Positions 14,790-43,324 of a DNA stretch of 45,664 bases are shown in pieces. Under the pieces are notes generated by a model. It did not search any database and was not told where the DNA came from. It saw only the letters and a program-made list of their open reading frames with translations. The stretch comes from a bacterium. GTDB taxonomy: Bacteria; Zhuqueibacterota; Zhuqueibacteria; Oceanimicrobiales; Oceanimicrobiaceae. The DNA is taken from positions 1 to 45,664 of the forward strand of contig JBHHXT010000020.1 of the NCBI GenBank assembly GCA_046757165.1, written 5' to 3'. The stretch's first letter is position 1, and each line of letters starts with the position of its first letter. The position numbers were made by a program, and so were the translations under genes.

Positions 14790-15197
14790 ATGAACCTTCA
14801 AGTTGGCCAGAAAGCCACGCGCAGCCTCACCCTGACACGGGAGCACGTCGAAAAATACTATGAGATAACAGGAGACAGGAATCCGCTTCACTTTGATGAG
14901 ACGTTCGCCTCCAAAACCAAATTCAAGAAACTAGTGGTCCAGGGCGGTCTCACCACCGGGCTATTGCACGCGCTGGTCGCAATGGACATGCCGGGCCCGG
15001 GCACGGTTTTTCTGAATCAAAACTGGAAGTTCACGGCGCCGGTTTTTATCGGAGATACGATTACTGCGGAAGCGACGGTTGTGAGTGTCCATGGGAGCAA
15101 ACCCGTTTGCCAGCTCGACTTCAAGGTCATCCGCCAAACGGGTGAAACCGTGCTGGAAGGGGAGGCCTGGTGTTACCGGTTCAGCCCGGTCCCCTAG
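14790..15197 (+). CDS. MaoC-family dehydratase ((R)-enoyl-CoA hydratase-like, hotdog fold)
   Basis: ITGDRNPLHFD hydratase motif, MPGPGTVF, FTAPVFIGDTI. Confidence 0.9.
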   Translation: MNLQVGQKATRSLTLTREHVEKYYEITGDRNPLHFDETFASKTKFKKLVVQGGLTTGLLHALVAMDMPGPGTVFLNQNWKFTAPVFIGDTITAEATVVSVHGSKPVCQLDFKVIRQTGETVLEGEAWCYRFSPVP

Positions 15198-16384
15198 TTC
15201 TCGACGTTGAGTATCGGTCCCTGATGCCAATCGATTTCGGGCTCATCATGCTGGATGAACGCATAAACCTGCAAGCGATAACGTCCCGCGTTCGCCGTCA
15301 CCTTGAATCGAAGTGGGATGCGATAGACTGTACGGTCAGGCTGTAAACACAGCGAACGCGAGCAAAGAAGCTCTGATTGACCACTGGTCAGATTAACTGC
15401 ATGGACCTGAGCCGTCAACGGTTTTCTCGCCATCGCCAAAACGGATGCATTCCTGCCAGAGATTTCGCAATCAATTTCACCCCCCAGGGCGTTGTCGTGC
15501 GCCAATTTGTTTCGGCCGCCACCATTCGAACTTGCCAGGCGCACGCCGGTGATCTCGAGTGCCAAAGCCCTCACGGCCGCGTCGACGTCTTTTTCTTTAT
15601 TGCTCTCCGGAAGGGGCCCGGAACTCATGGTCGCTGCTGTACGGGGCCGCTCGCGGTCGATACGTTTTCCACTGACCTTTGCTTTGGCTTCGTCGCCGCT
15701 GTTCTCAATCTGACCAATCGATTCAGAAACTGGCTTCGCTTTCGTGCTTTCAGATGGTTCCTGTGGTGCGGAGCCACCCGAGGCTGCCACTTCGCTCGCA
15801 GCCACTCCAGCAGGTTCATCCCCAATCGCTTTCGAGGGCGGAACCGGGTCGCTTGTTTCAGGCATAGGTTTGGCTTGTTTTGAGGGTACTTTCGTCTCGG
15901 CACCTGTTGAACTCTTGCTTTCCGGCGCGGCGACATCTTTCACACGGGTGTCTGCCAGACCCGCACGCGAGCCCGTCTTTGCTCCACCTTCCCTGGCTGG
16001 CTTTGAACCGCTGACTTTCTCGCGGGAGGCCGTTTCAGCGGGTTGCTCTTGCTCCCGGCTGTGGGAGAGAAGATTAGCAGCTCCCATCCAATCCTGACTT
16101 CTTATGATCGCAGCCGACACCAGGACTCCCGTGCGTTCCATCAACTCCTTCGACAGTTCCGGTGGCGCATACTGCGCAAGCTGTTCATATTTGAAGATCT
16201 CGAGACTGCTCAAAGCATACTCAATCCTGGCATCGATGCCATCGATTTTCGTGAAGTCATCGCGCTCCACTCCCGGAATCTCCACCTCCGGCACGACAGG
16301 CTTCTGGTAGGCTCTTTTGTTCCCTGACTTCGAGCTTCTATTCTTTTTCTTGTACCGCTTACCTTTCATGTTTTGCACACTCAT
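15194..16384 (-). CDS. Hypothetical protein with helix-hairpin-helix-like domain, low-complexity linker and C-terminal beta domain
   Basis: GAGGAG precedes ATG 16384. Basic N-tail, DDFTKIDGIDARIEYAL...YEQLA...QDWMGAA (HhH/DUF4332-like), S/E/K/P/A-rich linker, beta-rich C-terminus. Confidence 0.75.
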   Translation of the reverse strand: MSVQNMKGKRYKKKNRSSKSGNKRAYQKPVVPEVEIPGVERDDFTKIDGIDARIEYALSSLEIFKYEQLAQYAPPELSKELMERTGVLVSAAIIRSQDWMGAANLLSHSREQEQPAETASREKVSGSKPAREGGAKTGSRAGLADTRVKDVAAPESKSSTGAETKVPSKQAKPMPETSDPVPPSKAIGDEPAGVAASEVAASGGSAPQEPSESTKAKPVSESIGQIENSGDEAKAKVSGKRIDRERPRTAATMSSGPLPESNKEKDVDAAVRALALEITGVRLASSNGGGRNKLAHDNALGGEIDCEISGRNASVLAMARKPLTAQVHAVNLTSGQSELLCSRSLCLQPDRTVYRIPLRFKVTANAGRYRLQVYAFIQHDEPEIDWHQGPILNVEN

Positions 16385-16491
16385 TGTATTCTCCTCAAAC
16401 ACTCAGTGGTGCCCTTAAACAGTACAGTGCCTTGGACAGCTTTACTGCCGTGAGGCGATGTTTTGCTTCGTTAACACGAAACAAGTGGAGA

Positions 16492-16521
16492 AGCGCTGGC
16501 TCCGGATCCGAAGCCAGCGCT
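16492..16521 (-). other. Intergenic stem-loop between two co-oriented genes
   Basis: AGCGCTGGCT...AGCCAGCGCT with perfect 10-bp arms and further inner pairing; no U-tract. Confidence 0.6.
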
Positions 16522-16545
16522 CCATCCCTGGCCGCTCAATTCTGA

Positions 16546-17364
16546 CTATACTGGATTATAAACCAGATACCTGCACGCCCGATCGTGCTGGATCTCAGGA
16601 CCGGCGGTTCCTGAAATGAAGAAGAAACCCGGTTCTGTGTCCGGATCATAATGATCCGTGCTGACGAGTGCAAACGGCTGCCCCGCATCCGTGATATCCG
16701 CGGTCATGTTGGTCTCGTAGAGATTCGGGTTGAGACCGGGGTTGGCCGGGACGAAAAATGCCAGGAAGAAATTCAGGGCCGGTGGAAATGCACCAAAGGT
16801 GCCGGCAAAGGTGAAGTCGAGTTCGTTGTTGACGGTTGTCAGATTGATGGTCTCGAATCTGACTCGATAGTTGTGCCCACTCAGCGCCACTGTACCGGGA
16901 ATGCCACCCCCTAATAAATCGGGCGCCGGGTTCACAAACACGACGCCAAGCATAATCGCCAGTTCGCCAGCCGCGATGATCTTGCCCGGTCGCCAGGCCG
17001 GATCGGTATAGATCTGAAAGGGGCCCGCCGTAAAGCCGTTCCAATAAGAATAATTCAGAAACGTGGTGGGCCCGCCAGCCCTTGTCAGAGCGTCCCCATT
17101 GCGCCGCTTGGCCTCTGCCAGTTCTGCCACGCGATCAACGTAGCTGTCTGTCCGGTCTTTCAAAAAGCCGGCATAAGAGCGCAGAAACTTGGTGGTTTTC
17201 TCGACGGCTTCACCTGGGAGTTCAAGCTGCGGCGTCATTACATTGACGCTGACACCCTTGATTCCAGGATCGAGCCCGAGGGTTTCGGCAACGGTGCTGC
17301 CACTGCCATTCCCGTTCCCGCCAGCCTTGACGGTGAGCTCCGGAGGTTCAGTTATGATAGCCAT
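16546..17364 (-). CDS. Hypothetical protein (Pro/Gly/Phe-rich C-terminal domain)
   Basis: AAGGAG precedes ATG; 272-aa ORF with no signal peptide and no family that I recognise. Confidence 0.8.
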   Translation of the reverse strand: MAIITEPPELTVKAGGNGNGSGSTVAETLGLDPGIKGVSVNVMTPQLELPGEAVEKTTKFLRSYAGFLKDRTDSYVDRVAELAEAKRRNGDALTRAGGPTTFLNYSYWNGFTAGPFQIYTDPAWRPGKIIAAGELAIMLGVVFVNPAPDLLGGGIPGTVALSGHNYRVRFETINLTTVNNELDFTFAGTFGAFPPALNFFLAFFVPANPGLNPNLYETNMTADITDAGQPFALVSTDHYDPDTEPGFFFISGTAGPEIQHDRACRYLVYNPV

Positions 17365-17533: not shown

Positions 17534-17561
17534 TTGACAATTTGCCATAATCTTCTACAAT
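17534..17561 (+). promoter_or_regulatory. Sigma-70-type promoter upstream of the ECF-like gene
   Basis: TTGACA-N16-TACAAT in an AT-rich divergent intergenic region; palindrome TTTGCAC-AAAA-GTGCAAA downstream at 17607-17624. Confidence 0.5.
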
Positions 17562-17790: not shown

Positions 17791-18438
17791 ATGTGTCGCT
17801 TGGATGAGCCCTTACCTTTAGAAAAGTTGTTGTCTTACTGCTATGATGCGAAGTCGGAGTTTCATGAGCGCGGCTGGCGGGAGTTTTTGAGACGGTACAA
17901 GAAGTTCATGTACAATATCATCATCAATACCTGCCGGCAGTATCGGGTGACGCGCCTGAACCGGCAGTTTTCAGAAACCGTCAATGATATTTTCAACGAG
18001 GCCTTGAACACCTTGCTCAAGGACGACTACCGGGCCCTGCGCAGCGTCCAGGCAAAAGATAATGAAAAACAGTTTTTGTCATGGCTGGCGGTGACGTGTC
18101 ACCGCTGCGCCTCGGCCAATATCAAGAAGTACTTCAAGAATTCCCTGGTAGAAACCGATCCGACGGCATTTGCCCCTTACATGAACACACTCTCCTACAG
18201 CGAGCTGTGGCCACTTTATGAAGAACTGGTGAACGATATGCGCAGCAGCTCCAGGGCCAGCCGCAAGAACCTGGAACGGGATATCTATCTCTTCATGCTG
18301 TACAAATGGGAACAGTTGCCGCAGCCAATGATCCGCACCATCCCCTGTTTCAAGAAAACTGGCATTCGCGTCATCGAAGTTGCGACGGCGCGAATGTTGA
18401 AGTATCTAAAAGAATTGCGAAAATACGAAAATCGTTGA
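17791..18438 (+). CDS. Divergent ECF-type sigma factor-like protein
   Basis: Region-2-like pattern GWREFLRRYKKFMY...VNDIFNEAL...YRALR...FLSWLAVTCHR. Region 4 is only loosely recognisable (ERDIYLFMLY...ARMLKYLK). Confidence 0.7.
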   Translation: MCRLDEPLPLEKLLSYCYDAKSEFHERGWREFLRRYKKFMYNIIINTCRQYRVTRLNRQFSETVNDIFNEALNTLLKDDYRALRSVQAKDNEKQFLSWLAVTCHRCASANIKKYFKNSLVETDPTAFAPYMNTLSYSELWPLYEELVNDMRSSSRASRKNLERDIYLFMLYKWEQLPQPMIRTIPCFKKTGIRVIEVATARMLKYLKELRKYENR

Positions 18439-18465
18439 GAAGTTTGTAGGCGTTGTTCTCACATT

Positions 18466-18879
18466 ATGGGTGAAAACAGGATGAGCGATCATCGCAAACT
18501 TGGACATGCCCTGGCATTCCTGGATGCAGAGGTGGAAAAGAGCAAAAGCTTCGAAGCTCAGCAGCTCTCTGATGCAATGATGGATTATGTGCAGCACTTG
18601 CACAAGGTTCGTGCCTCGATTCTGGCTGAAAACCGCGTCGAAGGCATTTTCGACGCGATTCCGACAACCTACTGCCACTCGGAAACAGCGTACCTGGCTG
18701 GCAATGAGGATTTTTTCGTCGCCAGGTTTACCATCGCGCGCGTGGATGCAGAGGAAAGTAAACCCTGCCAGAATTTGTCGAAGCACCTGAACGATTGCTT
18801 CAAATGCTTCACTGTTTTTACCGAGGTGCTGCGCGATTTTTACAACAAGAAACAGGTCTTGACAGATGAATATGCTTAG
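18466..18879 (+). CDS. Soluble protein with ZAS-type zinc motif (putative anti-sigma component)
   Basis: HLNDCFKC (HxxxCxxC) with upstream YCH and PCQ; directly follows the sigma-like gene; alternative start 18481. Confidence 0.65.
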   Translation: MGENRMSDHRKLGHALAFLDAEVEKSKSFEAQQLSDAMMDYVQHLHKVRASILAENRVEGIFDAIPTTYCHSETAYLAGNEDFFVARFTIARVDAEESKPCQNLSKHLNDCFKCFTVFTEVLRDFYNKKQVLTDEYA

Positions 18880-18897
18880 GAACAGAGGACAGAAGCC

Positions 18898-20049
18898 ATG
18901 GACAATCAGATAAAGATTCCCCATCAAACTATCGTACGCTATCTGCGCCGCCAGCTCGCTGCGGATGAAAAAGCGCGCATTCAAACCATCAAGCAAGAAG
19001 ACAAGTCTTACGAATTTCTATTTGATCTCCTCGATACTCTCAGAAGCAAAGCAACCCTCAAAAAACAAATCACGGATACGACCCCTCTTTCTATCACCTT
19101 CTCCCAATTAGACGACCTGCTCGTGGCAATCTTTGCGGGCCAGGCCACCCGCCAGCAGGCGCAGCAGTTCATCGACGCCCTGATGTTCACGCCTATCTTT
19201 TATGAGCGCTTGCTGGTCCGGCTGCCGGCGGTTACGCCAGCACTGGCCATGGTGGAAGTGGCAGAAATGGCGCAAGTGGCCATACAATCGGATGAAGCGA
19301 TCCTGCGTGAGAGAATCTCGAGAAAAAGAGACTCCTCTGAACAAAGAAGCAGGCTCGTGCCGGTTGCAACCCCGCTGAGAAGGAGGCTGGGGGAATGGCT
19401 CGACTGGGTCGTGGGCCATCCGGGTTACGCTGTCGGCTCGGCGTTGGCTGTAGTCTTCATCGCGGTGCTGCTGACGCCAACCGTTTTGCAGCTCCTCAAA
19501 GACCCGTACGCTGCTTATGTGTATGATCAACGGATTCCATACCCATACTCAGCAATCATTTTTCGCTCGCCATCCGGCTCGCCGCAGGAAGAATCGGACC
19601 ATCAGACTTTAGAGACGCAATTCCGGGCGGCGATGGGGGACTATCTGTCCAGGAAGTATGAGCGGGCGCTCCTGCGCCTGGAGCGACTCCTGCCGCTGGT
19701 AGACAACCTGCTGGCACAGACGCCTGAACGCGAGGCTCTGGCGATCTTTCGCGATTACTATTTCTATCTGGGCGTGTCCCACTTTGCGCTTTCGAGGAGT
19801 CGGGAGCGCGATTTGACAAAAGAGGGCGTTCGGCAACATAATCGCGCAGCCATACGCTATCTGGCACGAGCACAAACGCTTGCTTCGGAAAGTGATCCGG
19901 ATTCGATGGATCGCGAAACGTTCTTCCTGGGGCTGGCATACGGATTCGGCCAGCAAAAAGAAAAGGCTGCTGAGCAGTTGAGAATAATCCCCGAGTCCAG
20001 CAGCCATTATGAGAAAAGCGTCAGCCTGATTCGCGAGTGGTCTGAGTAA
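18898..20049 (+). CDS. Single-pass membrane anti-sigma-like protein with C-terminal TPR-like domain
   Basis: Helical N-terminus (IVRYLRRQLAADEKARI), TM YAVGSALAVVFIAVLLTPTVL, TPR-like YFYLGVSHF and TFFLGLAY. Confidence 0.7.
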   Translation: MDNQIKIPHQTIVRYLRRQLAADEKARIQTIKQEDKSYEFLFDLLDTLRSKATLKKQITDTTPLSITFSQLDDLLVAIFAGQATRQQAQQFIDALMFTPIFYERLLVRLPAVTPALAMVEVAEMAQVAIQSDEAILRERISRKRDSSEQRSRLVPVATPLRRRLGEWLDWVVGHPGYAVGSALAVVFIAVLLTPTVLQLLKDPYAAYVYDQRIPYPYSAIIFRSPSGSPQEESDHQTLETQFRAAMGDYLSRKYERALLRLERLLPLVDNLLAQTPEREALAIFRDYYFYLGVSHFALSRSRERDLTKEGVRQHNRAAIRYLARAQTLASESDPDSMDRETFFLGLAYGFGQQKEKAAEQLRIIPESSSHYEKSVSLIREWSE

Positions 20050-20077
20050 GAACTGCCGATGAGGCAAAGCGATTATT

Positions 20078-20105
20078 TTTTTTCGCAGACCTCGCTGCGA
20101 AAAAA
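20078..20105. terminator. Hairpin after the anti-sigma-like gene
   Basis: TTTTTTCGCAG-ACCTCG-CTGCGAAAAAA. The U-tract is on the minus strand, so termination on the plus strand is uncertain. Confidence 0.45.
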
Positions 20106-20253
20106 GTCATTGGTGCTTCGCGCCGTCATTTGCCCAGCGGGCGTCATTTGGTCCTTGCTTGCCCAATGACGAGCGAAGCTCAAATGACGGTTTTTTCAGT
20201 AATGTCTGGCGCCAGGCGCCTGAACTATCCCATTCAGGAGAGGAGGTAAAAAC

Positions 20254-20820
20254 ATGGCAAACGGCTTTATCAAAGGTGTCACCCAACCCCAGAGGAAACG
20301 GGTGGTGGTCAAGGAGGAGGAATTTGGGCCGCTGAACGAGTTCGTCAACAATGATGATCGCCTTTCCGGGTTTCCAGTGGAATTTCGCACCGGGTTGCAC
20401 ATTCTGGCATTCATCCAAAAACCCACCGATGACCCAGAAGACGAGCCCGAACCCATCAACAGCACCTTTATTTCCGCACAGGTGAGCAAGCTGGGTGGCG
20501 ATGGACACAACACGACGATCATTCTGGCCATCGACGGGAGAGTGGTATTCCGCGAAAGCTTCAAGACCGTGGAGACCCTGGGCCTGAAAAAGCGAAACAA
20601 TCCGTATGGCGTCGTTTTCCACAAAGGCAAAAAGGGCGTACGGACGCTGACGATTGGATTTTCTGTGCCCCTGTTCTTTCTGTCGAAGTTGGAGTTGTAT
20701 GCCAAAGTAGAAGAAGACGATGTGAGCAAGATCGTCTCGAATGTGATCTGGGGAACGGAAGGAAGTGGGGATGGGGAGCCACCTAACGGACCAGGTGGCG
20801 GTGAAGACCCCTTTCCTTAA
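20254..20820 (+). CDS. Hypothetical cytoplasmic protein
   Basis: Strong GGAGG RBS; 188 aa, beta-rich core (IILAIDGRVV...NNPYGVVF...TLTIGFSVPL), acidic Gly/Pro tail. Confidence 0.8.
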   Translation: MANGFIKGVTQPQRKRVVVKEEEFGPLNEFVNNDDRLSGFPVEFRTGLHILAFIQKPTDDPEDEPEPINSTFISAQVSKLGGDGHNTTIILAIDGRVVFRESFKTVETLGLKKRNNPYGVVFHKGKKGVRTLTIGFSVPLFFLSKLELYAKVEEDDVSKIVSNVIWGTEGSGDGEPPNGPGGGEDPFP

Positions 20821-21018
20821 ACGGCTGTGCAACACTAGTTTGCCAATTGTCCCGGCACGGTAACATCGTTTCTGAACGTCGCGCCCGTGCGGAACAAAGT
20901 TGCAGAGTGTCGCAAAGGATAAACAGCTTCGTCAAAACACGGGTTATTCCTCTGCGTGTCTGTATTTCGCATGGGCGGGACCGTCCGACAATAAAGTGAT
21001 GTTCGAGGGGAGGAACGA

Positions 21019-24000
21019 ATGTTCGAGCTGAACGAAACATCCAGCGTATCTAGCCGTCCCGGTTGCCTGATGACTCAGTCTCATCGGCCAACTCAATACT
21101 CCAGCTTCCTTCGTTTTATGCTCGGATTGCTGGTCGCGCTCCTGTTGTTCGCCGAGGCCACCTCCGCCCACGCCGTCCTGCAAGAAGATCTCTCCACCAC
21201 CATGTCCCAATTCTATCACGAGTTAGAGCTGGTGGCGGCGGATTCCTCCGGCGACCTCATCCAGATGTTGCAGGATTTCGTAGAACGCTATCCGAGGTTT
21301 GAACGCGCATATCTGCACCTGCTGGAGCACTACATCTTTACCGGCCAGATTCAAGAAGCTCAAACCTTTTTCCTGCAATTGGCAAAAGAAAGGCGCCATC
21401 GGCGAAACAGCCACTGGATGCTGGCCAAAATCTTCCAGCATAACAAGGACCCACAAGCCGCTTTGCAAGCATTTATCGTAGCCCTGCAAGATTCGTTGCA
21501 GCCAGGCCCAAAGCTGCTGAGTGATTTTCTATGGTTTGATAACAGACACTTGAAACGGTACAATGACCCCGAGTTTGTCAAACAACTGAACCTTGACGAC
21601 AAGACCCGAGATATTGCTGATGCCATCCATACTTTCCTGAAATTGGACTTTCGCAAGGCCACAGGACGCTTTGAGCGATTACCAGCGAGGGCTTCAAACG
21701 ATCCGAATCTTCTGTACACCTGGGGGTATTGCCATCGGCGACAGGGACACGATGAGGAAGCCAGGGTGCTCTGGCAGAAGGGCCTCGAGATTGCCCGCAA
21801 GCAGGGGGACCTGGAGTCAGAAGCCAAGTTTCTGTTGGTATTGGGGAATCTGTACCGTTCGTCTCAAAACCCGGAAAGGGTCTTGTGCTACTTCGATTCA
21901 TCCTACGCTATCGCTAAGAGAATCAATGACCTGCAAAACATGGAATACCTGGCCGGAAACCGAGCCATTATTTATCGAGAAAGGGGAGATTACGCGCTCG
22001 CCGAGGCGTTTTTCCGCAAAGCCATCGCAACCTCGAGGCAGTTGAGATCTGAATGGAAACTGTCGGTCTGGTACTCACACCTGGGCTGGCTATTTCACCA
22101 CAACGAGCAGTATGATACGGCATTAGAATACTATGACTTGAGTGCAAGTTTTGCCAGGAAGACCAATCATGAACAAATGTTGCTGCAAGCCTTGTTGAAC
22201 AAGGCCAGAATATACAACAGCACAGGACACACGCGATTAGCAGAAGGCTTCTATGATGAAGTGAACACGCTTGCTGGCAACAAGGGTATGGTTGAATACA
22301 CCCGTAGCGCTCGCGAGGGCTTAGCGGACATTTATCTTGCAGAAGGCAAAGTCGAGAAATCCAGAAGAATCTACCATGATCTACTAAGCTCGCCTATTCA
22401 TAAGCACGGCTATTTGGCAAACCGCGCCTACTGGAACATTCAGACCGGGCGTTCCCATCTGGCGGAATACGCCTATGAGTCCGCCAGGCAGAGCTTTCAG
22501 CAGGCGCACAAACTCTCGAAGGTGGCCCAATCAGACCGCTTGACTGTATGGTCCTTCATCTACCTAGCTCGGATGGACCTTCTTGCAGGGAGGTGGACTG
22601 AAGCACAGAAGAATTACGTCCAGGCTTTAGAAATCGCCAGAAGCGAAGATAACGATAGCCTACCCGCAATCCACCTCGGTCTCGGCAACGTTTACAAGGC
22701 GAGGGGGGAACGAACCAAGGCTATCACAGAATACCGCAAAACGGCAAGAATCGTCGAGAAAACGCGCGCAAACCTCGGCGTCCGCCAATTTCGAGTGGCG
22801 TATTTTGTCGCCGCCTCCGAGGTTTACAACCAACTCATCGATTGCTATTATCAATGGTACCTGGACTCCAACCAATCTGCACTATTGGACAGCCTCTACT
22901 ACTATGTCGAAATGACACGCAGCCGGGCCCTCAGAGACCTGAAACTGCAGAAAATGGCCAACCGCAAGACGCGACCCGCACAGCAAGCGGTCTCCTCCTA
23001 CGAGCAGGTCTGTCAAAACCTGCAGGTCAAACAACGAAAGCTGCGCGAACAAACAAAGCAAAGAACGCTCAGCGATAGCACATCGGAGAAACTCCTGGCA
23101 GATATTGAAATAAGCCGGTTGTCTCTGATTGAACAAAGACTTCGCCTTGCCGAAAACTCGTCTGCTGACGAGGTGATGCAACAGCAGCCACAGCAGGCGC
23201 TATTCGACGTAAGACCACAAACAACCGAATTTCATCATCCAGTGTTACTCTATCACTTGTCGAAGAGCGCGTCGTTTGTTCTTGCGCTCGTGAATGGGGA
23301 AAAGAAGCTTATCCAGTTGCCCATCTCCGCGTCGCAGGCGCGACAGGCTGTAAATTCGCTCGTCGCGCCGCTGCACCGGTTCACCATGCAGGGCTTTGTG
23401 CAAACACCGTTTCATGCAAAGATTGCGTATGAGTTATACCAGAAGCTCGTCGAGCCGGTCGAAGCCGCTCTAAACCTGCCGCAAAATCTCGTCATCGTCC
23501 CGGATATCGATCTGATGAATCTGCCGTTCGAAATGCTGCTGACCCGGCCAGCCGATAAGTCGCACTACACGCCTCAGGATAAGCCGACCTATGCCCCGTA
23601 TTTTTTGCAGCACCGGTATGCCATCACCTACAGTCCATCGAGCCTGCTTTTGGAGTCCTCATCAAGATGGCGCATGGGTCGCCCGGGTGTTCTGGTTTTC
23701 GCCGATCCCTTTGAAGAAACGCCGTTGCTGGCACAGCAACAGGATGAGAGTGCGGCAAGCGACAGGCTTGCTGCCTCGTACAGGCCGGATGACAGCGGCA
23801 GGAGCGTGCGGCAGCTCCGTTTGCGAGCTGGGTTGCGTTTGCAGGGCTTGCCGTTCGCAAAAGTGGAGGCCCAAAAGATTGATGAGATCGCACCGTGGGC
23901 AAAAATATACCAGCAGACGGAGGCCACAGAAGCTGTTTTTTTCAGGGAAGCAGCACGATTCGACATTCTGCATCTTGCGACCCATGGCTTCGTCGACAGC

Positions 24001-24534
24001 ACCTACGACGCGTTTTCCGGCCTGGTGCTGGCCGCTGGCCCGGACTCGACCGAGGACGGGTTTCTCATGGGGTATGAAATCGCCGAAATGAACCTCGATT
24101 GCGACCTGGTCACCCTGAGCGCGTGTGAGACGGGCAGAGGAAAATTGGTCACCGGAGAGGGCGTGCTCGGGCTGCCTCGTTTGTTCCTGAGTGCCGGAGC
24201 AAGATCGGTTCTGCTGACGCGCTGGAAAGTTGACGACCTGTTTTCCGCGCAATTGATGCCACAGTTTTACCGCCATCTGCTGCAGGAGAACCGGTCAAAA
24301 GCGAACGCTCTTGCGGAAGCAAAACGGGCGGTGCTCAACGAGGGGCACGAGCAAGGCGGCGTTTACTATCAACATCCCGTGTTCTGGGCGGCGTTTAGTC
24401 TCTTCGGAGACCCGGGGCAAAACAAGATTGATATTTCGAACGGCCTGACGGTTGCGAAATATTTTGCCGTCGCTCTGTTTCTCCTGATCGGCATACGCAT
24501 CTACGCGCGGCGGCGGCCCTCGGCGGTCTCGTGA
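21019..24534 (+). CDS. TPR-CHAT (caspase/HetF-like) cysteine protease, predicted exported and membrane-anchored
   Basis: N-terminal hydrophobic signal (FMLGLLVALLLFAEATSAHA), TPR array, catalytic ILHLATHG and LVTLSACETG, LVIVPD, HPVFWAAF, C-terminal TM followed by RRR. Confidence 0.93.
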   Translation: MFELNETSSVSSRPGCLMTQSHRPTQYSSFLRFMLGLLVALLLFAEATSAHAVLQEDLSTTMSQFYHELELVAADSSGDLIQMLQDFVERYPRFERAYLHLLEHYIFTGQIQEAQTFFLQLAKERRHRRNSHWMLAKIFQHNKDPQAALQAFIVALQDSLQPGPKLLSDFLWFDNRHLKRYNDPEFVKQLNLDDKTRDIADAIHTFLKLDFRKATGRFERLPARASNDPNLLYTWGYCHRRQGHDEEARVLWQKGLEIARKQGDLESEAKFLLVLGNLYRSSQNPERVLCYFDSSYAIAKRINDLQNMEYLAGNRAIIYRERGDYALAEAFFRKAIATSRQLRSEWKLSVWYSHLGWLFHHNEQYDTALEYYDLSASFARKTNHEQMLLQALLNKARIYNSTGHTRLAEGFYDEVNTLAGNKGMVEYTRSAREGLADIYLAEGKVEKSRRIYHDLLSSPIHKHGYLANRAYWNIQTGRSHLAEYAYESARQSFQQAHKLSKVAQSDRLTVWSFIYLARMDLLAGRWTEAQKNYVQALEIARSEDNDSLPAIHLGLGNVYKARGERTKAITEYRKTARIVEKTRANLGVRQFRVAYFVAASEVYNQLIDCYYQWYLDSNQSALLDSLYYYVEMTRSRALRDLKLQKMANRKTRPAQQAVSSYEQVCQNLQVKQRKLREQTKQRTLSDSTSEKLLADIEISRLSLIEQRLRLAENSSADEVMQQQPQQALFDVRPQTTEFHHPVLLYHLSKSASFVLALVNGEKKLIQLPISASQARQAVNSLVAPLHRFTMQGFVQTPFHAKIAYELYQKLVEPVEAALNLPQNLVIVPDIDLMNLPFEMLLTRPADKSHYTPQDKPTYAPYFLQHRYAITYSPSSLLLESSSRWRMGRPGVLVFADPFEETPLLAQQQDESAASDRLAASYRPDDSGRSVRQLRLRAGLRLQGLPFAKVEAQKIDEIAPWAKIYQQTEATEAVFFREAARFDILHLATHGFVDSTYDAFSGLVLAAGPDSTEDGFLMGYEIAEMNLDCDLVTLSACETGRGKLVTGEGVLGLPRLFLSAGARSVLLTRWKVDDLFSAQLMPQFYRHLLQENRSKANALAEAKRAVLNEGHEQGGVYYQHPVFWAAFSLFGDPGQNKIDISNGLTVAKYFAVALFLLIGIRIYARRRPSAVS

Positions 24535-24574
24535 ATTCGACTGTAAGGTCGGGATGAACCCCCGGCCATAGATT

Positions 24575-24772
24575 GGGGCTGTCCCAAAAGACCAGAAATG
24601 TCATTCCGGCCGAAGGGAGGAATCTGACGAGCCACCAATCGTAGGATTCACGAAGACAACTACTTACATCGGAGTCCTTGCATTAACAGATTTCTCGCTT
24701 CACTCGAAATGACAGGCCCCAAGAACCTTTTTGGACAACCCCATGACACAAAAGTGGATTTTTGGGACAGCC
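24575..24772. mobile_element. MITE-like palindromic insertion
   Basis: Left end GGGGCTGTCCCAAAAG (24575-24590), with two right-end copies (24727-24742, 24759-24772) and internal inverted arms GTCATTCC...GAATCTG (24600-24626) and CAGATTTC...AAATGAC (24687-24713). Confidence 0.6.
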
Positions 24773-24816
24773 TCTGCTGCGTTTCACACTACCCTTCAAC
24801 CAAAGGGAGAAGAACT

Positions 24817-27800
24817 ATGCTACCAACAAAGCTTCGGCACAATTGGGCCATTGTTGCGTGTTTCCTGGCCCTGGTTTGTTTCGCCGGGTTTCATGAGGAC
24901 GCGCGCGGCGGGAATGGCCGCTTCAAAGACGGGGCCTTTGATATCATTGTCACCCTCAGCCCCAATCTGACCGACGCAGATGTTGACACGCTGCAGAGTC
25001 GTTTCACCAACGCCAGCAGATTGCTCTACAATGCCACGGAGGGTCAGGCCCGGTTTGGCAGGGTCTTTATGCTCAAGAACTTCGTCGGCAAACGATTCTC
25101 GGATATCAGAATCTCCTTTTCCACCACGCCTCGCGAGGCACGCACGACCGGCCGTCTGGGTCGCGCAGGCCAGCGAGTTTACCTTTATACCAGGAACAAT
25201 ATCTACTCCAGCGATGTCGAGGACTCCCGGCAGACGATTGTGCACGAGTGGGCACACTATGCGTTTGATCTGCTCGACGAATACAAGGACCAGAACAACG
25301 TAGAAGGCAAATGGTGTATCGACCCGCCCTCCGATGGTGGAACGGTAACAGCATGTCTCATGGACAACTACAAAGCGCCCTCCCATCAGCACGTGACCGA
25401 ATTCTGCTGGTCGAGAATTGTTGATGAAACAGATGTCGGCAATCACGACCCGAACCACGACACAAAGCAGGAAGCAATCCACCATGAATCTTGTTGGCAG
25501 ACAATCATGGGCACGTATCGTTTCTTTACCCTGGCCGATGCAGGCCCTGACCCGGAAGTTCCAGGTTGTTTTGTATCACCGGATTTTATCATTCCCGCCG
25601 ATCCCCGGGTACGGGTCGCACTGGTGCTGGATAATTCAGCCAGCATGAACGGGCCGGGCAGCGAGGACAGCACCACCAATGGCGACACCGATGACAGCGA
25701 TGGCGAGCCGACAAAATTCGATTTCCTGAAAACGTTTGCCAACCTGTTTCTGGATCTGATCTCGACCAGCCAGAACAAGACCGAGCTTCAGATCATCTCC
25801 TTTAACTCGGAGGCGACGGAAATCTGGCCGCTCCAGTTGCTCGAGTCAAGCAATCTTACGGCGGCACAAAACTCGGTAAACTCTCTGACAGCAAGCGGAT
25901 TCACAAACATCGGCGCCGGCATGATCATGGCCCGGGACTCTTTGCTGAAAACGAACACGCCTGAAGAGGACCCCGGAATGAAGGGCCCCATGGTCATGGT
26001 CCTGGTGACGGACGGTTTTCACAATTATCCTCCTGAGACAGAGGAGACCCGTCCCGAGGCCGTCCTGCCAAGCCTTGTCGACGCCGGCATTCACATCCAT
26101 CCCGTCTCCCTGGGCGACGCGACGGATGAGGCGTTGATGAGCGACATCGCAGATTCTTCAGGCGCGGTTTTCTGGCGCGCAGAAAATTCCGTCCGCTTCG
26201 GCTCGAGTATGGCAGAACTCGCGGCCAACATCCTCGAAGGCTCGAACATGGGCAGCGAACAAAGCGGAAGCATCAGTGACAGCTCGCCCCCCACCTCCTC
26301 CATGAATCCCGCCAAATCGAGCAGGTTGCTGAGCAGCACGGTCCCGGTGGTGACAACGCCAACGCCCGCCCTCGAACCCATTTTTGTCGAGGCGGACGCG
26401 GACCAGGTCTTCTTTGATCTGGTCTGGTCCACGGGCAACTCCCGGCTGAACCTGCTGCTCGTCACCCCGGACGAGGAGCTGCTCCACCCGGATTCGCTCA
26501 GAGCTGCCCCCCGTGATGACATCAAAATATTCGAAGGCGACAGATATCAGTTGTATGCCGTCACCAAACCGGACAGCGGCGAGTGGAATTTCATGGTGGT
26601 GGCTGAGACCGCGCCCGAGCCGACGACGTTTGTGTTTCAGGCGCTGGGAATCAATCCGGCGGTCGAGCTCAATGTTCATGTTGAAAAGCAAGAACGAGAG
26701 CCTGCAGTTCTGGACAGTCAATCCAGGTTCCATCAGGCTGCACCGCTCATCCATATTGAAGCCGTCGCGACCGATACGCTGCCGCTCATCAACATCGACC
26801 TGGCAGCGAAAGTAACAGCGCCGGACGGCAGCGTCAGAACCATTCAACTCTCAGACAGTGGCCGCGTGCGATTGGATGGCGACAGATTCGCAAACGATGG
26901 CATCTACTCTGCCGACATTTTTCCGGCCGGCTTCGAAAGTGGCAACGGCTCCTACCGGGTTGAAGTGACGGCAACGGTTGACCAAAACGTTGCCCGCGTT
27001 GTCCCGGGCGACGACCCCGGGCCGGATTTTGGCGACCGGGAGCTCACCAGAGTCAGGAGCTTTCGCCGCCATATGTCCGTTCACGAGGTCGTCACCGAAC
27101 TTCCTGACGACAGCCCGGATGATACGGACAACGACGGAATCATTGATGACCTGGACCGGTGTGACGAAGACTCCGACGGAGATGGAACCCCGAATTGCGA
27201 GGACCTGGATTCCGACAACGATGACTATGCCGATGCGGACGAAACCACCGCAGACACGGATGAAGACGGCATCCCGAATTTCCTCGACCCGGATTCTGAT
27301 GGCGATGGCATCCCCGAGCTCGATGACCCGACGCCATACAAAGCAGACACCGGCTTCATCTACGGCGTCGACGAAGACCATGGCAGATTTGTCAGGATCG
27401 ATCCGACCGCCACCACGCCTGAGCTCCTCGATTTGGGACGGGTCGTGGACGCGGAAACCGGAAAGAAGATCAAGGACATGGAAGCTCTGACCTGGGACCC
27501 CGAGACAAGAAGCCTCTTCATGTTTTCAAACAGCCGCAAAGCACTGTTCAGGATCAGTCCGGACCGGCTTGCGGGACCGCCAGAAACCGGAGTTATCCGG
27601 GCGGAGCTGGTCGGCAAAGCCCGCAGCGAGGTGCACGCCATGTCGATTCATCCGGTGACCGGAGAACTCTACGGCGTGGCCAGGAAAAAATATCTGGCCC
27701 GAGTTGACAAAGCCACTGGCAGCCTGACCCGCATTGGCAAATTGGGGTTCAAAGACGTCGAAGGGTTGGCATTTACCGTTGCACCGGATCCTGTACTCTA

Positions 27801-28083
27801 CGGCGTCGACAACAAAACCGGCAAGCTCATTCGAATCGAGCTCACCACTGCCTCTGCCACATCGGTTCATCCTGAAAACAAGATCGGGTTTCGGGAAGTG
27901 GAGAGCCTCGTTTTCGATCGCGAGGGCACCCTGTTCGGATTTAGCGACAAACCAGAAGACAAACTCATCAAGATCGATGTGGCCACCGGCATCGGCCGCA
28001 AGGTCACCGTGCGCGGCACGCACGGTTTCGATATCGAAGGGATGGCCGTTATCTGGGGGACCCGGTTGTTGACAGGAAGATAG
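24817..28083 (+). CDS. Secreted CLCA-like zinc metalloprotease with vWA, Ca-binding DxDxDG repeats and C-terminal beta-propeller
   Basis: Signal peptide from ATG 24817; ASRLLYNAT, HEWAHYAFDLLDEY, EFC...NH...SCWQTI; vWA LVLDNSASM...TNIGAG...LVTDG; DRFANDGIYSA; TSP3-like repeats; propeller repeats. Confidence 0.88.
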   Translation: MLPTKLRHNWAIVACFLALVCFAGFHEDARGGNGRFKDGAFDIIVTLSPNLTDADVDTLQSRFTNASRLLYNATEGQARFGRVFMLKNFVGKRFSDIRISFSTTPREARTTGRLGRAGQRVYLYTRNNIYSSDVEDSRQTIVHEWAHYAFDLLDEYKDQNNVEGKWCIDPPSDGGTVTACLMDNYKAPSHQHVTEFCWSRIVDETDVGNHDPNHDTKQEAIHHESCWQTIMGTYRFFTLADAGPDPEVPGCFVSPDFIIPADPRVRVALVLDNSASMNGPGSEDSTTNGDTDDSDGEPTKFDFLKTFANLFLDLISTSQNKTELQIISFNSEATEIWPLQLLESSNLTAAQNSVNSLTASGFTNIGAGMIMARDSLLKTNTPEEDPGMKGPMVMVLVTDGFHNYPPETEETRPEAVLPSLVDAGIHIHPVSLGDATDEALMSDIADSSGAVFWRAENSVRFGSSMAELAANILEGSNMGSEQSGSISDSSPPTSSMNPAKSSRLLSSTVPVVTTPTPALEPIFVEADADQVFFDLVWSTGNSRLNLLLVTPDEELLHPDSLRAAPRDDIKIFEGDRYQLYAVTKPDSGEWNFMVVAETAPEPTTFVFQALGINPAVELNVHVEKQEREPAVLDSQSRFHQAAPLIHIEAVATDTLPLINIDLAAKVTAPDGSVRTIQLSDSGRVRLDGDRFANDGIYSADIFPAGFESGNGSYRVEVTATVDQNVARVVPGDDPGPDFGDRELTRVRSFRRHMSVHEVVTELPDDSPDDTDNDGIIDDLDRCDEDSDGDGTPNCEDLDSDNDDYADADETTADTDEDGIPNFLDPDSDGDGIPELDDPTPYKADTGFIYGVDEDHGRFVRIDPTATTPELLDLGRVVDAETGKKIKDMEALTWDPETRSLFMFSNSRKALFRISPDRLAGPPETGVIRAELVGKARSEVHAMSIHPVTGELYGVARKKYLARVDKATGSLTRIGKLGFKDVEGLAFTVAPDPVLYGVDNKTGKLIRIELTTASATSVHPENKIGFREVESLVFDREGTLFGFSDKPEDKLIKIDVATGIGRKVTVRGTHGFDIEGMAVIWGTRLLTGR

Positions 28084-37078: not shown

Positions 37079-39697
37079 CTACTTCAACAGCATCATTCGT
37101 CCCGACTGGCTCGACGGGCCTATGGTGACGCGGTAAAAATAGACGCCGGAGGACGCAGGCTCGCCCTGTTGGTTTGTCCCGTTCCAGTGGATGGTATACT
37201 CTCCGGGTGGTTTTTTGCCGTTCAGGAGAACTCGTACCAGCTCGCCTTTCAAGCTATAGATTTTGAAGGACACGTGAGCCGCGTTTTCGACCCAGCCGGG
37301 GATTCGTAAGCGAAACGTCGTGCTCGGGTTGAACGGATTCGGGTAATTCGGAGTGACGGAGAACTGGTCTGGTCTCTCTCCTTTGGGTCGGTGCGCTTCT
37401 GAAATCGAGTGTTTTAGCGTGAATGCCCCCTCGTCTAACTTGACTGGCAAAAACGTCATCCCTTCGATGTCATGTCCAATGGCGCCGGAGATGGGAAACT
37501 CCATGCCGAGTCCAAACTGGCGTTCGATAGTAATGAATTTCTCCCTGCCGGAGTCGCTAAAGCCGAACAACCGGCCGTCGCCGCTGAAGGTTAACGCCTC
37601 AACGTTCTTGAACCCGATTTGAAACGGGCTCACCGGGGTGGCGGTTCCACGCGAGGTGTCAAGAATGAGGAGCTGATGGCTGTCGTTGTCAACGCCGTAC
37701 AGTTTCGGTTCATTCCCGGGCGAAAACGCCATGGCTTCAATGTCAGAGAAGGGCAATCGTCCTATTTTGGTCACCGTTGCCGATTGCTTGTCGATGGTCA
37801 CCAGAATCGACTTCTTGTTGTCGACGCCGAACATGGTTCCTGTCTGCGGGTGGATCGCGATGCCGTCCAGGTCTGTCGATCCGGTACGACCGACCAGCTC
37901 GGCCGGCACGATGTCATTCGCCAGCGGTTGCTGGAAGAAGGAGGCCATGATCTTGAACAGTCGACCGCCCTTTCTGTTTGAAATGATGAAAACATGCCCG
38001 GAATCAGGATCCCGCGCCATCGCCTCCATCTCTGGAATGGCTTTTCCGTTGTATAGAATTGTACCGAACTCAACAAGCTGAGGGATGGCGGGTGGAGAAT
38101 CCGTGCTGATATCAACTCCTACCAGCGTCCGGCGGTCTTCATCGACGCCGAGGAGCAGCCCGCGAACGGCGGGCTGCGTTCGCCTGACATGGATGGTATC
38201 CGCGCAGCTCGTGCTGTCACCGGCATGGTCGAAGAAGGTGCAGCTTGCGACAATCGTGTTGTCACCGGCCGCAAGCGGAATTCTGGCGCGTATTTGCGCG
38301 CTGCTCGAACGCTCGACGGGAACCTCGTTGATCCGGCAGGTGCTGGTTATCTCTGGCAGACCCCCTCTTGCCTCTGCTGCGGCGGTGACCCAGATGCTGT
38401 CGGCCTCAACCGCCTCATGGTTGTCAGGAGAGATGATCGCGACCTGGCAGTTCAGCCTCTCCACCCATGTCGCGGTCACGGCTGCCGACCTCAGCGTGTC
38501 TCCAGATTCGCTGGTTATGGCCGCAACAATGGTGTCTGTGCCTGTTTGGCTGCCGGTATACACAAAATGCGCCAGGCCTTCGCTGCCGGTGGTGTCGGTC
38601 GCGGTGGTGTTGGCATGGGGGCCGCCTGCGATGAGGAACCTGACCGCCTTACCGACAACGGCTCGGTCTTGCCTGTCGTGCACACGCGCCGTGATCTCGT
38701 GCTCCGTCTGTAGCAAATGGATCGCCGAGTCAGGGGATAGGTTGACAAACTCATTGACCGGCATGCTGAAAAGGACATAGGCGAAAAAGAGATTGTCCTT
38801 GCCGGCGATGTTCCGGGTCCAGATGCTGAGGCGCGTGTCATCGGGGCCCAGGAAAGGCTTGAGGTCATAAAGCTCATCGTCTGCATCGTTCAGGTCGAGG
38901 GGGTTGGCGTTGTCATCCCCGAGCCCTCCGACGGTCAGGAGCGCCCCGCGGGCGGCCTCTCCATCATCAGCCCCCCCGGCGCGCGAGGTCAACGGTTGGT
39001 CGTTCACTTTGACGGCGGTGTACTCTCCCGGCTCGAAACTGGAGGCGATGCCCAACCCCAGATCGAGGAGAGTACGCTCTTCACGCGGATCGAACCGGCC
39101 TCGCAAGTCGAGGTCCTCGATCCCGAATCGGGCACCGCTCGTATCTTGTGACCCGAAAAACAGCACGATGCGGCTCAAATTCGCCGGCGGTGGAACCTCG
39201 AAGACCACAACCAGGATTTCCCCCTCGATCCCCTCACTATCCACTTCGTCGACATCCAGCTCGTGCCGGCCGGCAGGTTGCGACTCCAAATAAGGCTTGA
39301 CAATATCCGTCACCTCTGCCCAGTGGTTGAAGGAGCTGAGATCGCTCGGAAACGCGAACTGCCAGACAACGTCCTGACCTAGTAGCTTGACCTCCCCGGG
39401 CATGAGGAATCGACGGAAGAAGGAAGTGGTCGCGGCTGCCAGGAATGCCTTGCGCACGCTGCCTTCAGGCGGCTTTTCCACGGTCAGGGTGCCGGACTCA
39501 GACCGGGTGCCCAGGCCGTCTACCGAGACGACGAACGGCCCGAGCTGGTCGTACATTTCCATCAGCGCGAATGTTCCTTTTTCTGGAGTGGTCGAGTCTT
39601 CTGGCCGACGCTCCTGTGCCGGCAGACCTCTGAGCATAAGCAGGCTGGTCAGTAAGGCAAGGTACCCGATTCTTTTACGCAACTGTCCCTTCACCAT
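37079..39697 (-). CDS. Secreted multidomain protein: N-terminal beta domain, Ig-like (Big_1) domains, beta-propeller, T9SS-type tail
   Basis: GAGGAG precedes ATG 39697; signal peptide; VRFLIAGGPHAN...GTDTIVA Ig-like domain; propeller GVDED...DIEGMTF; NYPNPFNPSTT. Confidence 0.88.
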   Translation of the reverse strand: MVKGQLRKRIGYLALLTSLLMLRGLPAQERRPEDSTTPEKGTFALMEMYDQLGPFVVSVDGLGTRSESGTLTVEKPPEGSVRKAFLAAATTSFFRRFLMPGEVKLLGQDVVWQFAFPSDLSSFNHWAEVTDIVKPYLESQPAGRHELDVDEVDSEGIEGEILVVVFEVPPPANLSRIVLFFGSQDTSGARFGIEDLDLRGRFDPREERTLLDLGLGIASSFEPGEYTAVKVNDQPLTSRAGGADDGEAARGALLTVGGLGDDNANPLDLNDADDELYDLKPFLGPDDTRLSIWTRNIAGKDNLFFAYVLFSMPVNEFVNLSPDSAIHLLQTEHEITARVHDRQDRAVVGKAVRFLIAGGPHANTTATDTTGSEGLAHFVYTGSQTGTDTIVAAITSESGDTLRSAAVTATWVERLNCQVAIISPDNHEAVEADSIWVTAAAEARGGLPEITSTCRINEVPVERSSSAQIRARIPLAAGDNTIVASCTFFDHAGDSTSCADTIHVRRTQPAVRGLLLGVDEDRRTLVGVDISTDSPPAIPQLVEFGTILYNGKAIPEMEAMARDPDSGHVFIISNRKGGRLFKIMASFFQQPLANDIVPAELVGRTGSTDLDGIAIHPQTGTMFGVDNKKSILVTIDKQSATVTKIGRLPFSDIEAMAFSPGNEPKLYGVDNDSHQLLILDTSRGTATPVSPFQIGFKNVEALTFSGDGRLFGFSDSGREKFITIERQFGLGMEFPISGAIGHDIEGMTFLPVKLDEGAFTLKHSISEAHRPKGERPDQFSVTPNYPNPFNPSTTFRLRIPGWVENAAHVSFKIYSLKGELVRVLLNGKKPPGEYTIHWNGTNQQGEPASSGVYFYRVTIGPSSQSGRMMLLK

Positions 39698-42281: not shown

Positions 42282-43324
42282 GAAGAAAACAGCCACATGG
42301 TTCATCCAGGGGGGAAAAGCTCACGGTGATAGTGGGCTTCCTGACTGCCACCGTTCTCCTCGCGATGGGGTCTTTGCCCGCGTTGGGCCAGAGAAAGATC
42401 ATATTTGATGCCAGGCTTGTGGGAGGCGTGGAGGTTGCGCCTAAACCCGAAACGGGCGAGTATGAGAAACTGGAAGAGATCGAAAAGTACCTGACAAACA
42501 CAACTATCGACTTTCGTCGCGATCAAGCTGATACGATCATCAATGCGAACCAAGACAGCGTGGAATTACAGCTTCAAATAAAGGTTGCCATTTACATTGC
42601 TCCCGCATTAGAAGCAGCTATCGATGATTTTTGTTTGAGGCTCAAGACACCCGACCTCGAATCTCCTTTTCACCTCCAACTTAACGCGGAGATTGAGAAC
42701 AAACACTCTGGTAAACGGCTGCTACAAAACTTCCACGCTTCTGTTATTTTCGTGAATCACCCAGGCAAAGATTTGAACCTGAGAGAATATTTTGCGCCAG
42801 GCAAAGCCACCCTTAAGGTCATCAGAACGAGCGACCGCTGTCAGCGGGATTCGGGCCGCATGGCAACCATTACGGTTGGTAGCACTCAAGCGGTAACCGC
42901 ACCGCCGATTACCACAGTGACTCCCAGGCCGAAAGACGACTTTGTCGATAGAACAGAGATCGCATTCCGGGCATCTTATGGGCTCTATTTTCTCCCCGTT
43001 TTTGACGTCACCGCCTATGCCGCCCTCTGGGAGCATCGGGTTTTCTCAAAAGGCGAAGCATGGAAACTCATTGGGGTCTCTGGCCTGGGTGCGCTTGAAA
43101 TTGTTCTCAAAAAGAAGGTGAAGTTTTTCCGAGAGAGAGGCGGGGAAACCAACATCGCTTTTACGGTCTTGAATCTTGGCTTGCTGCTGGCGGATCTCAG
43201 TGATGGTGAGCTGGATGTGTTTGGCGCCATCGAAGCACGAAAGACGCCGGAAATCGGGCTGCCGCCGGACCTGCCGCCAAGGACGACTGCAAAATTGCCC
43301 TTTCAAGTCAACCTCAGCTTCTGA
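42278..43324 (+). CDS. Hypothetical exported or membrane protein
   Basis: ATGA overlap with the upstream stop; hydrophobic N-terminal segment ending ALGQ; amphipathic/hydrophobic C-terminal segments. Confidence 0.8.
   Translation: MRRKQPHGSSRGEKLTVIVGFLTATVLLAMGSLPALGQRKIIFDARLVGGVEVAPKPETGEYEKLEEIEKYLTNTTIDFRRDQADTIINANQDSVELQLQIKVAIYIAPALEAAIDDFCLRLKTPDLESPFHLQLNAEIENKHSGKRLLQNFHASVIFVNHPGKDLNLREYFAPGKATLKVIRTSDRCQRDSGRMATITVGSTQAVTAPPITTVTPRPKDDFVDRTEIAFRASYGLYFLPVFDVTAYAALWEHRVFSKGEAWKLIGVSGLGALEIVLKKKVKFFRERGGETNIAFTVLNLGLLLADLSDGELDVFGAIEARKTPEIGLPPDLPPRTTAKLPFQVNLSF

Follow-up and report, generated by a model that had tools for sequence, protein, structure and literature searches.

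The window, here meaning the whole 45,664-nt stretch of contig JBHHXT010000020.1 with coordinates counted from its first letter, carries six co-oriented genes on its plus strand, all of which were confirmed as open reading frames (ORFs) where a sequence-only reading had placed them, and which that reading had proposed to form a proteolytic signalling system around a sigma factor of the extracytoplasmic function (ECF) type and a CHAT protease. The first four (17791, 18466, 18898 and 20254, named by their start positions) fell into no Pfam or NCBIfam family, and only the last two (21019 and 24709) could be named. Most of the six make up a conserved module, whose features, with a promoter match ahead of them, are the following:

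17534 to 17561, plus strand: sigma-70-type promoter match (TTGACA-16-TACAAT) upstream of the sigma gene, 11/12 to consensus and a consensus match only.
17791 to 18438, plus strand: divergent ECF sigma factor (sigma2 and sigma4), 215 amino acids (aa), with a profile match to AlgU/RpoE/SigW structures.
18466 to 18879, plus strand: soluble zinc anti-sigma-like protein, 137 aa, apparently the two-repeat cytoplasmic domain of 18898 in the form of a free-standing copy.
18898 to 20049, plus strand: single-pass anti-sigma-type protein, 383 aa, with cysteine-less cytoplasmic repeats, a helix at 182-200, a linker and a TPR-like ectodomain.
19564 to 19566, plus strand: codon of Arg223 of 18898, the most conserved linker column and predicted P1 residue, the cut falling between Arg223 and Ser in Phe-Arg223-Ser.
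20254 to 20820, plus strand: slot gene, 188 aa, with a beta-rich domain and an acidic Gly/Pro tail ending in Phe187-Pro188.
21019 to 24534, plus strand: exported TPR-CHAT protease, 1171 aa, with a predicted signal peptide and C-terminal membrane anchor; its predicted S1 acids, by motif, are Glu950 and Asp1073.

The expectation that these genes would occur together in other genomes was borne out by their order, which recurs among relatives. Among 49 ORFs of the 18466 family from the fetched loci (window included; kin are not independent), the sigma gene lies directly upstream in 46/49 and the anti-sigma gene directly downstream in 41/49, and a CHAT gene is found within 6.5 kb in 26 of the 31 that have at least 7 kb of room. 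Three layouts recur: type A, that of the window, with sigma, zinc protein, anti-sigma, slot gene and anchored CHAT; type B, with added membrane genes ahead of the CHAT gene and a small gene behind it; and type C, a sigma and anti-sigma pair with CHAT absent. The same genome holds a second type A locus, split across contigs C177 and C15 (32-nt overlap), and a plain trio of sigma, zf-HC2-TPR anti-sigma and CHAT on contig C272. Furthermore, CHAT domains occur in 154/167 genomes of the phylum, relatives of 17791 in 35/61 related genomes and the 18466 family in 39/167 phylum genomes; a sigma was detected by profiles in 14 of 79 named CHAT loci, trios of sigma, anti-sigma and CHAT were found among Bacteroidota and Acidobacteriota records, and one type A locus (L107) is labelled uncultured Calditrichaceae.

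The sigma-like nature of 17791, proposed from its letters, held when a sigma2/sigma4 fold was looked for. A profile of 32 relatives aligns with AlgU and RpoE over both sigma2 and sigma4 (E 3.6e-7 to 7e-6), and the AlphaFold model is all-helical and two-part, with a pLDDT of 90. Taken alone, 17791 drew nothing from Pfam, and its best Foldseek rows were ECF sigmas at weak values (E of at least 0.02, none at 0.001). As in ECF (group IV) factors, sigma2 and sigma4 lie within about 200 aa and other sigma regions are absent. The profile collected 204 clusters at E ≤1e-30 among 1.84 billion representatives, with a weak Pfam sigma match in one of six clusters scanned from that list; judged by these profiles, the family is a divergent ECF subfamily overlooked by standard annotation. 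Moreover, a pattern similar to the promoter match stands upstream of 9/26 related sigma genes (shuffle mean 0.63), and the match and its recurrence make the operon look constitutively expressed rather than self-induced, as far as a consensus match can tell. The earlier suggestion that the sigma factor induces its neighbours did not find support: its own operon has a housekeeping-type promoter, and a simple k-mer look at the flanking DNA gave AT-rich words only and no shared ECF-type motif. Elsewhere, a 17791-type sigma is fused at the C-terminus of a 796-aa protein (P0131) with no Pfam match, the N-terminus of which presumably resembles vWA-type conflict-system proteins.

The anti-sigma part is apparently divided between two genes. 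The soluble protein 18466 does carry the HxxxCxxC motif noticed in it (HLNDCFKC), and Cys70, His107, Cys111 and Cys114, each at least 90% conserved in 22 sequences, give it the ligand set of a zinc-binding anti-sigma (ZAS) domain; its upstream-ligand spacing is about 36 residues, and that of typical ZAS domains is shorter. It cross-matches the anti-sigma N-terminus (hhalign E 2.3e-4, probability 44%), and distant members of both families have two HxxxCxxC repeats; on this alignment evidence, 18466 and the cytoplasmic part of 18898 are homologues. The model of 18466 is confident and helical, fold searches gave nothing above background and no clear structural match, a PDB profile search yielded one chance-level row, and a word-based homolog search matched only the protein itself. 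Protein 18898 had rightly been described as single-pass, with one hydrophobic helix at 182-200, and its TPRs were not detected by Pfam, although relatives carry TPR and zf-HC2. The zinc ligands expected of an anti-sigma have been lost from 18898 and are carried by 18466: HxxxCxxC is absent from 18898 and from 26/28 type A anti-sigmas, one or two copies are present in aligned distant relatives, and anti-sigmas without the motif are found in 32/39 loci having an 18466-type gene versus 5/39 loci without that gene. The 18466-type domain is fused to sigma in one locus (L088), and in five places (L036, L076, L083, L089 and this genome's own contig C201) sigma and an 18466-type gene stand without a membrane protein, at L036 and C201:7497-8616 directly before a Rieske gene. 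We infer that 18466 binds the sigma factor. A search for longer relatives of the 18898 ectodomain found none, which is weak evidence.

The exported CHAT protease with an intact dyad was also confirmed. In 21019, Pfam finds TPRs and the CHAT domain (E 7e-63, 213 bits, cut-off 24), the clan CD dyad is His989/Cys1036, and hydrophobic segments lie near both ends (residues 30-48 and 1143-1161). The TPR-bearing and the catalytic partners are both predicted on the outer side of the membrane. In clan CD, as described in the available text of two reports, the S1 acids that bind a P1 Arg sit on helix alpha1 and loop L5 (PMC4626109, PMC4357240), and by motif Glu950 and Asp1073 appear to fall at these two places, which would give 21019 Arg specificity. 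Cuts by CHAT-type proteases after Met, Leu and Arg are reported in the accessible part of the DdvA work (PMC11506125). In Sb-Csx29, a Leu cutter, the column of Asp1073 holds Ser. The best PDB match of the CHAT profile is DdvA (E 1.7e-9), and in the alignment to PDB 8ROT DdvA retains Asp at that column, a hint that it would prefer a basic P1. An Arg-rich loop before Leu944, considered as a mirror of the anti-sigma site, was dropped, being absent or different in other CHAT types.

The predicted cut site, Arg223, lies 23 positions past the helix of 18898. When the anti-sigmas were aligned, without reference to the proteases, this linker column held Arg in 27 and Lys in one of 28 type A proteins; type B2 had Met in 7/8, and in type B1 the residue was Leu, His or Arg; the site falls 16-50 residues past the helix, one truncated row excepted. 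In the first set of loci, the residue at the Glu950 column of CHAT followed the linker residue. As a test set, 80 further CHAT loci were fetched, giving 51 anti-sigma/CHAT rows; after dropping eight rows lacking an aligned residue and L207, L208, L222 and L242, and removing L074, L100 and L093 from the first set, 74 pairs were counted, 35 first seen and 39 fetched afterwards. Every Arg/Lys site (57/57) was paired with acids at both 950 and 1073, an acid at 950 was lacking in 16/17 of the remaining pairs, and the residue after the site was Gly, Ser or Ala in 66/74. The Glu950 column carried 0.68 of 0.78 possible bits, and was the sole column among 342 having at most one mismatch. A third set was picked through a profile built from CHATs lacking the acid; its 20 new and 11 re-read regions gave 10 usable pairs, namely eight Met sites and one Leu site with Phe, Leu or Ile at 950, and one His site with Glu (and Asp). 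Of the resulting 84 pairs, 57 have Arg/Lys with Glu and 18 have Met with a non-acidic residue; Leu is found with a non-acidic residue in two and with Gln in one, and His with Gln in four and with Glu in two.

Other CHAT proteins were met along the way. A paralogue in this genome (G000 C4:14548-17880) has Pro for the catalytic His and Ala for a conserved Pro, and is likely inactive. In a separate family (L230, L246, L257, L285-L289), a 380-470 aa protein precedes CHAT and no sigma was detected, most of these loci having, on the other strand, a gene of 940-1000 aa. At L243 and L250, secreted proteins unrelated to the anti-sigma stand before CHATs of the Glu/Asp type and contain Val-Arg-Ser or Leu-Arg-Gly motifs; they are possibly other CHAT substrates, and we take them to be FecR-like.

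The 188-aa protein 20254, previously called an orphan, indeed has no Pfam family, and a metagenome scan found no relative of it, nor did the Atlas give a usable match; it is no mere orphan, though, as it occupies a conserved slot for Pro-rich peptides and has a family of eight members in which the final Phe187-Pro188 is invariant. Between anti-sigma and CHAT lies a gene that evolves fast, is often 40-70 codons long and has a stretch rich in Pro, Gly and acidic residues; by a criterion fixed after the sequences had been seen, 20/30 type A intervals passed as such slots, against 1/30 on the opposite strand and 37/1500 random windows (2.5%). The CHATs beside the eight family members form one clade in a tree of the TPR region, though their sigma genes differ in type, a pattern that co-inheritance could also explain. 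With these features, 20254 is a candidate ligand of the CHAT TPRs. Three of the eight family members are lipoprotein-like. The slot gene of the second locus, running from the start of C177 to the end of C15, encodes a short leader and at least six tandem 12-residue units, most ending in Gln-Pro-Arg, and the assembly is broken there because of this repeat.

The analysis demonstrates the order and domain build of the genes, the dyad of the protease, and a conserved linker residue that co-varies with two protease positions. For this conserved operon, we consider it probable that the exported TPR-CHAT protein 21019 is the protease making the first cut in 18898, predicted after Arg223, and that the ECF sigma factor 17791 would be freed as a result. 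In such a switch, the cytoplasmic domain of 18898 and its soluble zinc-bearing copy, 18466, would jointly hold the sigma factor until the dyad is brought into line by a ligand at the CHAT TPRs, for which the Pro/acid-rich tail of 20254 is the likeliest candidate. CHAT would then remove the ectodomain of 18898 between Phe-Arg223 and Ser, RseP, encoded elsewhere in the genome, would cut the helix of 18898, and the freed sigma factor would transcribe its targets, for which the CLCA-like gene behind CHAT and a divergent unit ahead of the operon (16546) are candidates. RseP is present and intact (contig C64), and the genome shows two hallmarks of regulated intramembrane proteolysis cascades of the RseA/MucA type: an anti-sigma with one membrane pass encoded next to its sigma factor, and a second protease of the RseP kind. 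A further hallmark, a first cut in the ectodomain that depends on a signal, is here a prediction at Arg223.

Several points weigh against this reading. Reportedly, E. coli RseP needs a hydrophobic new C-terminus, and Arg is not hydrophobic. On the trees (quick and FastTree), the co-variation comes down to three lineages, two with Met/Leu, both well supported, and one with His/Leu, with two independent pairs on well-supported branches, of which one is concordant and one is without difference (both being concordant if His is set aside); with so few independent pairs (2-3 switches), a sign test cannot reach significance. The argument from co-variation is therefore that the best column is the one predicted by clan CD chemistry, with complementary residues, and is not a statistical one; in addition, the S1 assignment comes from motif and not from a model. 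Possible counter-examples are L093, where Arg is aligned and CHAT has Leu, and L264, where Arg was placed by eye and the CHAT column holds Leu, most other dropped rows showing, by eye, Arg-Gly or Arg-Ala beside a Glu-type CHAT. Arg is also kept in anti-sigmas lacking an adjacent CHAT (10/11 of type C and 6/7 others, one of these seven later found linked to a CHAT), and may accordingly have another role or be cut in trans. As for the ligand, 20254 of the window has no signal peptide or other export signal, and basic residues follow the helix of many slot peptides that have one, by which their tails are predicted to face the cytoplasm, away from the TPRs.

How a cytoplasmic ligand might reach the TPRs can be read in two ways, the plainer being an unknown export route and the boldest a signal of breach or lysis. 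In the latter, which we hold to be somewhat unlikely, the system would be a damage alarm: a locus-specific, Pro-rich cytoplasmic tag would meet the periplasmic caspase-fold receptor after a membrane breach or the lysis of kin cells, and the receptor would then cut the anti-sigma at a P1 residue (Arg, Met, Leu or His) retuned together with its pocket, giving several insulated channels per cell.

The alternative that survives best, though improbable, is that CHAT mainly processes the slot protein to a signal peptide, which binds the TPRs of the anti-sigma, another protease making the first cut. The tandem repeats of slot genes favor it, since their borders fit the local CHAT type (Gln-Pro-Arg at the second locus; His-Gly in the His-type locus L047; Asp-Arg-Gly after the Arg-type CHATs of L239, L245 and L260), as does the Arg kept by anti-sigmas without an adjacent CHAT. 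Nevertheless, it leaves unexplained why an anti-sigma residue tracks the CHAT pocket, and no conserved Arg-Gly/Ser site was found in the eight members of the 20254 family. Processing of slot peptides and cutting of the anti-sigma by CHAT are, in any case, compatible and not exclusive roles.

A second alternative, with a small chance of being right, takes the linker Arg for a pseudo-substrate, through which 18898 docks into CHAT and inhibits it, the output being the action of CHAT on other proteins. This would produce the same match of P1 and S1, and there is a precedent in the gingipain prodomain, which puts an Arg into S1 as an inhibitor, as described in the available text of PMC4357240. However, the small residue that usually follows the site, like its location immediately beyond the membrane, is what a cleavable site for a first cut would show, and the sigma and zinc-domain genes would be left without a trigger. 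Very unlikely, and the weakest of the three, is a sigma factor responding mainly to zinc or redox loss at 18466, with the membrane and protease genes as a secondary or co-inherited input: sigma and 18466-type genes standing without a membrane protein, twice before a Rieske gene, and the zinc ligands lost from 18898 where an 18466-type gene is present speak for it, but an anti-sigma gene follows most 18466-type genes and the match of P1 and S1 is kept.

First cleavage of 18898 by CHAT being our preferred reading, two neighboring units are possible outputs of the sigma factor:

24709 to 28083, plus strand: CLCA-like secreted metalloprotease/vWA/propeller protein, 1124 aa, with a start probably near 24820.
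15194 to 17364, minus strand: divergent two-gene unit, 16546-17364 being of unknown family and 15194-16402 having a weak helix-hairpin-helix (HhH) match in a relative.

The sequence-only reading had called 24709 a secreted metalloprotease and a member of the cluster. Its HExxH motif (HEWAH..DEY at residue 179) and a vWA domain are present, with a Pfam CLCA score of 19.6 bits, below the cut-off of 25.6, and a TIGR00868 score far below its own cut-off; as a core part of the system it was rejected, standing behind CHAT in four loci only, and it is better seen as an accessory of that clade and possibly an output of the sigma factor. Its C-terminal propeller is common to other secreted proteins of the genome (36-44% identity; 27350-28080, 37448-38161; contigs C282, C57 and C154). 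The 16546 family occurs in 9/167 phylum genomes and at L026, and in 5/10 of these places it lies beside a sigma or CHAT locus, a possible output likewise. Its Atlas look-alikes are unnamed Actinomycetota proteins. At other loci (L026, L058, L265-L272), a mobile-looking cassette comprises a 16546-family protein, an HhH-containing protein, an SLT-domain protein and a further gene, without a Pfam name, which we take from its motifs to be trypsin-like; the cassette often adjoins a CHASE2/sigma-54 activator, and the window retains two of its genes.

Type B loci (L030, L046, L047, L058, L062, L065 and others) add a two-helix membrane protein, with HExxH in L030, and a 140-350 aa protein, and their small gene behind CHAT encodes a two-helix protein with a Pro/Gly motif; none of six added type B genes tested had a Pfam family. 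Type C pairs (L049, L050, L052, L063) are often preceded by a DUF5916 gene, and the gene behind them is presumably an RNA 3'-phosphate cyclase, to judge by its N-terminal motif. Near the far end of the window, 40116-43324 (plus strand) encodes two predicted exported proteins (721 and 348 aa), neither of which has a Pfam family or a paralogue in the genome, and a repetitive ORF at 43613-44542 (minus strand), also with no Pfam family, reads as the shadow of a plus-strand gene running off the contig end.

Among known systems, ECF54 is alike in that an ECF sigma is encoded near a TPR-CHAT gene; in the available text it is confined to Actinobacteria, has no putative anti-sigma and neighbors subtilase and carboxypeptidase-regulatory-domain genes (PMC7826278), whereas the window has an anti-sigma-type gene and no such neighbors, so that it falls outside that group. 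Type III-E Csx29/Csx30/CASP-sigma, which the earlier reading had taken as the analogue, is less close than DdvA/DdvS. There too a TPR-CHAT protein cuts a sigma inhibitor, but, according to the accessible part of the report, in the cytoplasm and activated by Cas7-11 and RNA (PMC10028731), whereas here the cut is predicted outside the membrane. No Cas family was found among 22 window proteins, which places the system outside type III-E CASP; neither CRISPR nor CBASS genes turned up in the scan of window proteins, and PADLOC (8 window proteins, 3 relatives) gave only a TPR match. AlgW-MucA-AlgU with MucE and DegS-RseA-sigmaE work alike, in that a membrane-anchored periplasmic first-cut protease, switched by a C-terminal peptide, cuts a single-pass anti-sigma; as far as the available text describes them, AlgW and DegS are HtrA serine proteases with PDZ sensors (PMC8545111), in contrast to the present clan CD cysteine protease, which has TPRs and whose candidate ligand varies by locus.

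The closest known system is DdvA/DdvS of Myxococcus xanthus, which combines an ECF sigma, a CHCC-type zinc anti-sigma domain, one helix and a periplasmic TPR-CHAT, and for which a cut of the linker by CHAT, ahead of RseP, was proposed by the authors (PMC11506125). By this analogy, the system looks like a split DdvA/DdvS. Control of a CBASS/CRISPR island is a further trait of DdvA/DdvS. In the available text of that work, DdvA is a single polypeptide with an incomplete active site, and a periplasmic CHAT as first-cut protease of an anti-sigma is left open, neither site nor signal being known (PMC11506125). Here, zinc domain, anti-sigma and protease are three separate genes rather than a fusion in one chain, with a predicted site and a peptide slot gene in between. 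In the literature searched, in which subscription journals were largely out of reach, no account was found of a TPR anti-sigma being cut by a separately encoded CHAT. If the reading is true, many bacterial caspase-like proteins, a large class so far lacking annotation, would gain a function, given the spread of CHAT domains across the phylum and of trios in Bacteroidota and Acidobacteriota, and peptide-gated protease/sigma switches could become available to synthetic biology. In brief, the module is real and conserved, and offers a precise predicted cut site for an uncharacterised signalling switch; compared with the single-chain DdvA, the split arrangement has a substrate in soluble form, a scissile bond that is predicted, a pair of pocket residues, natural specificity variants and a candidate ligand.

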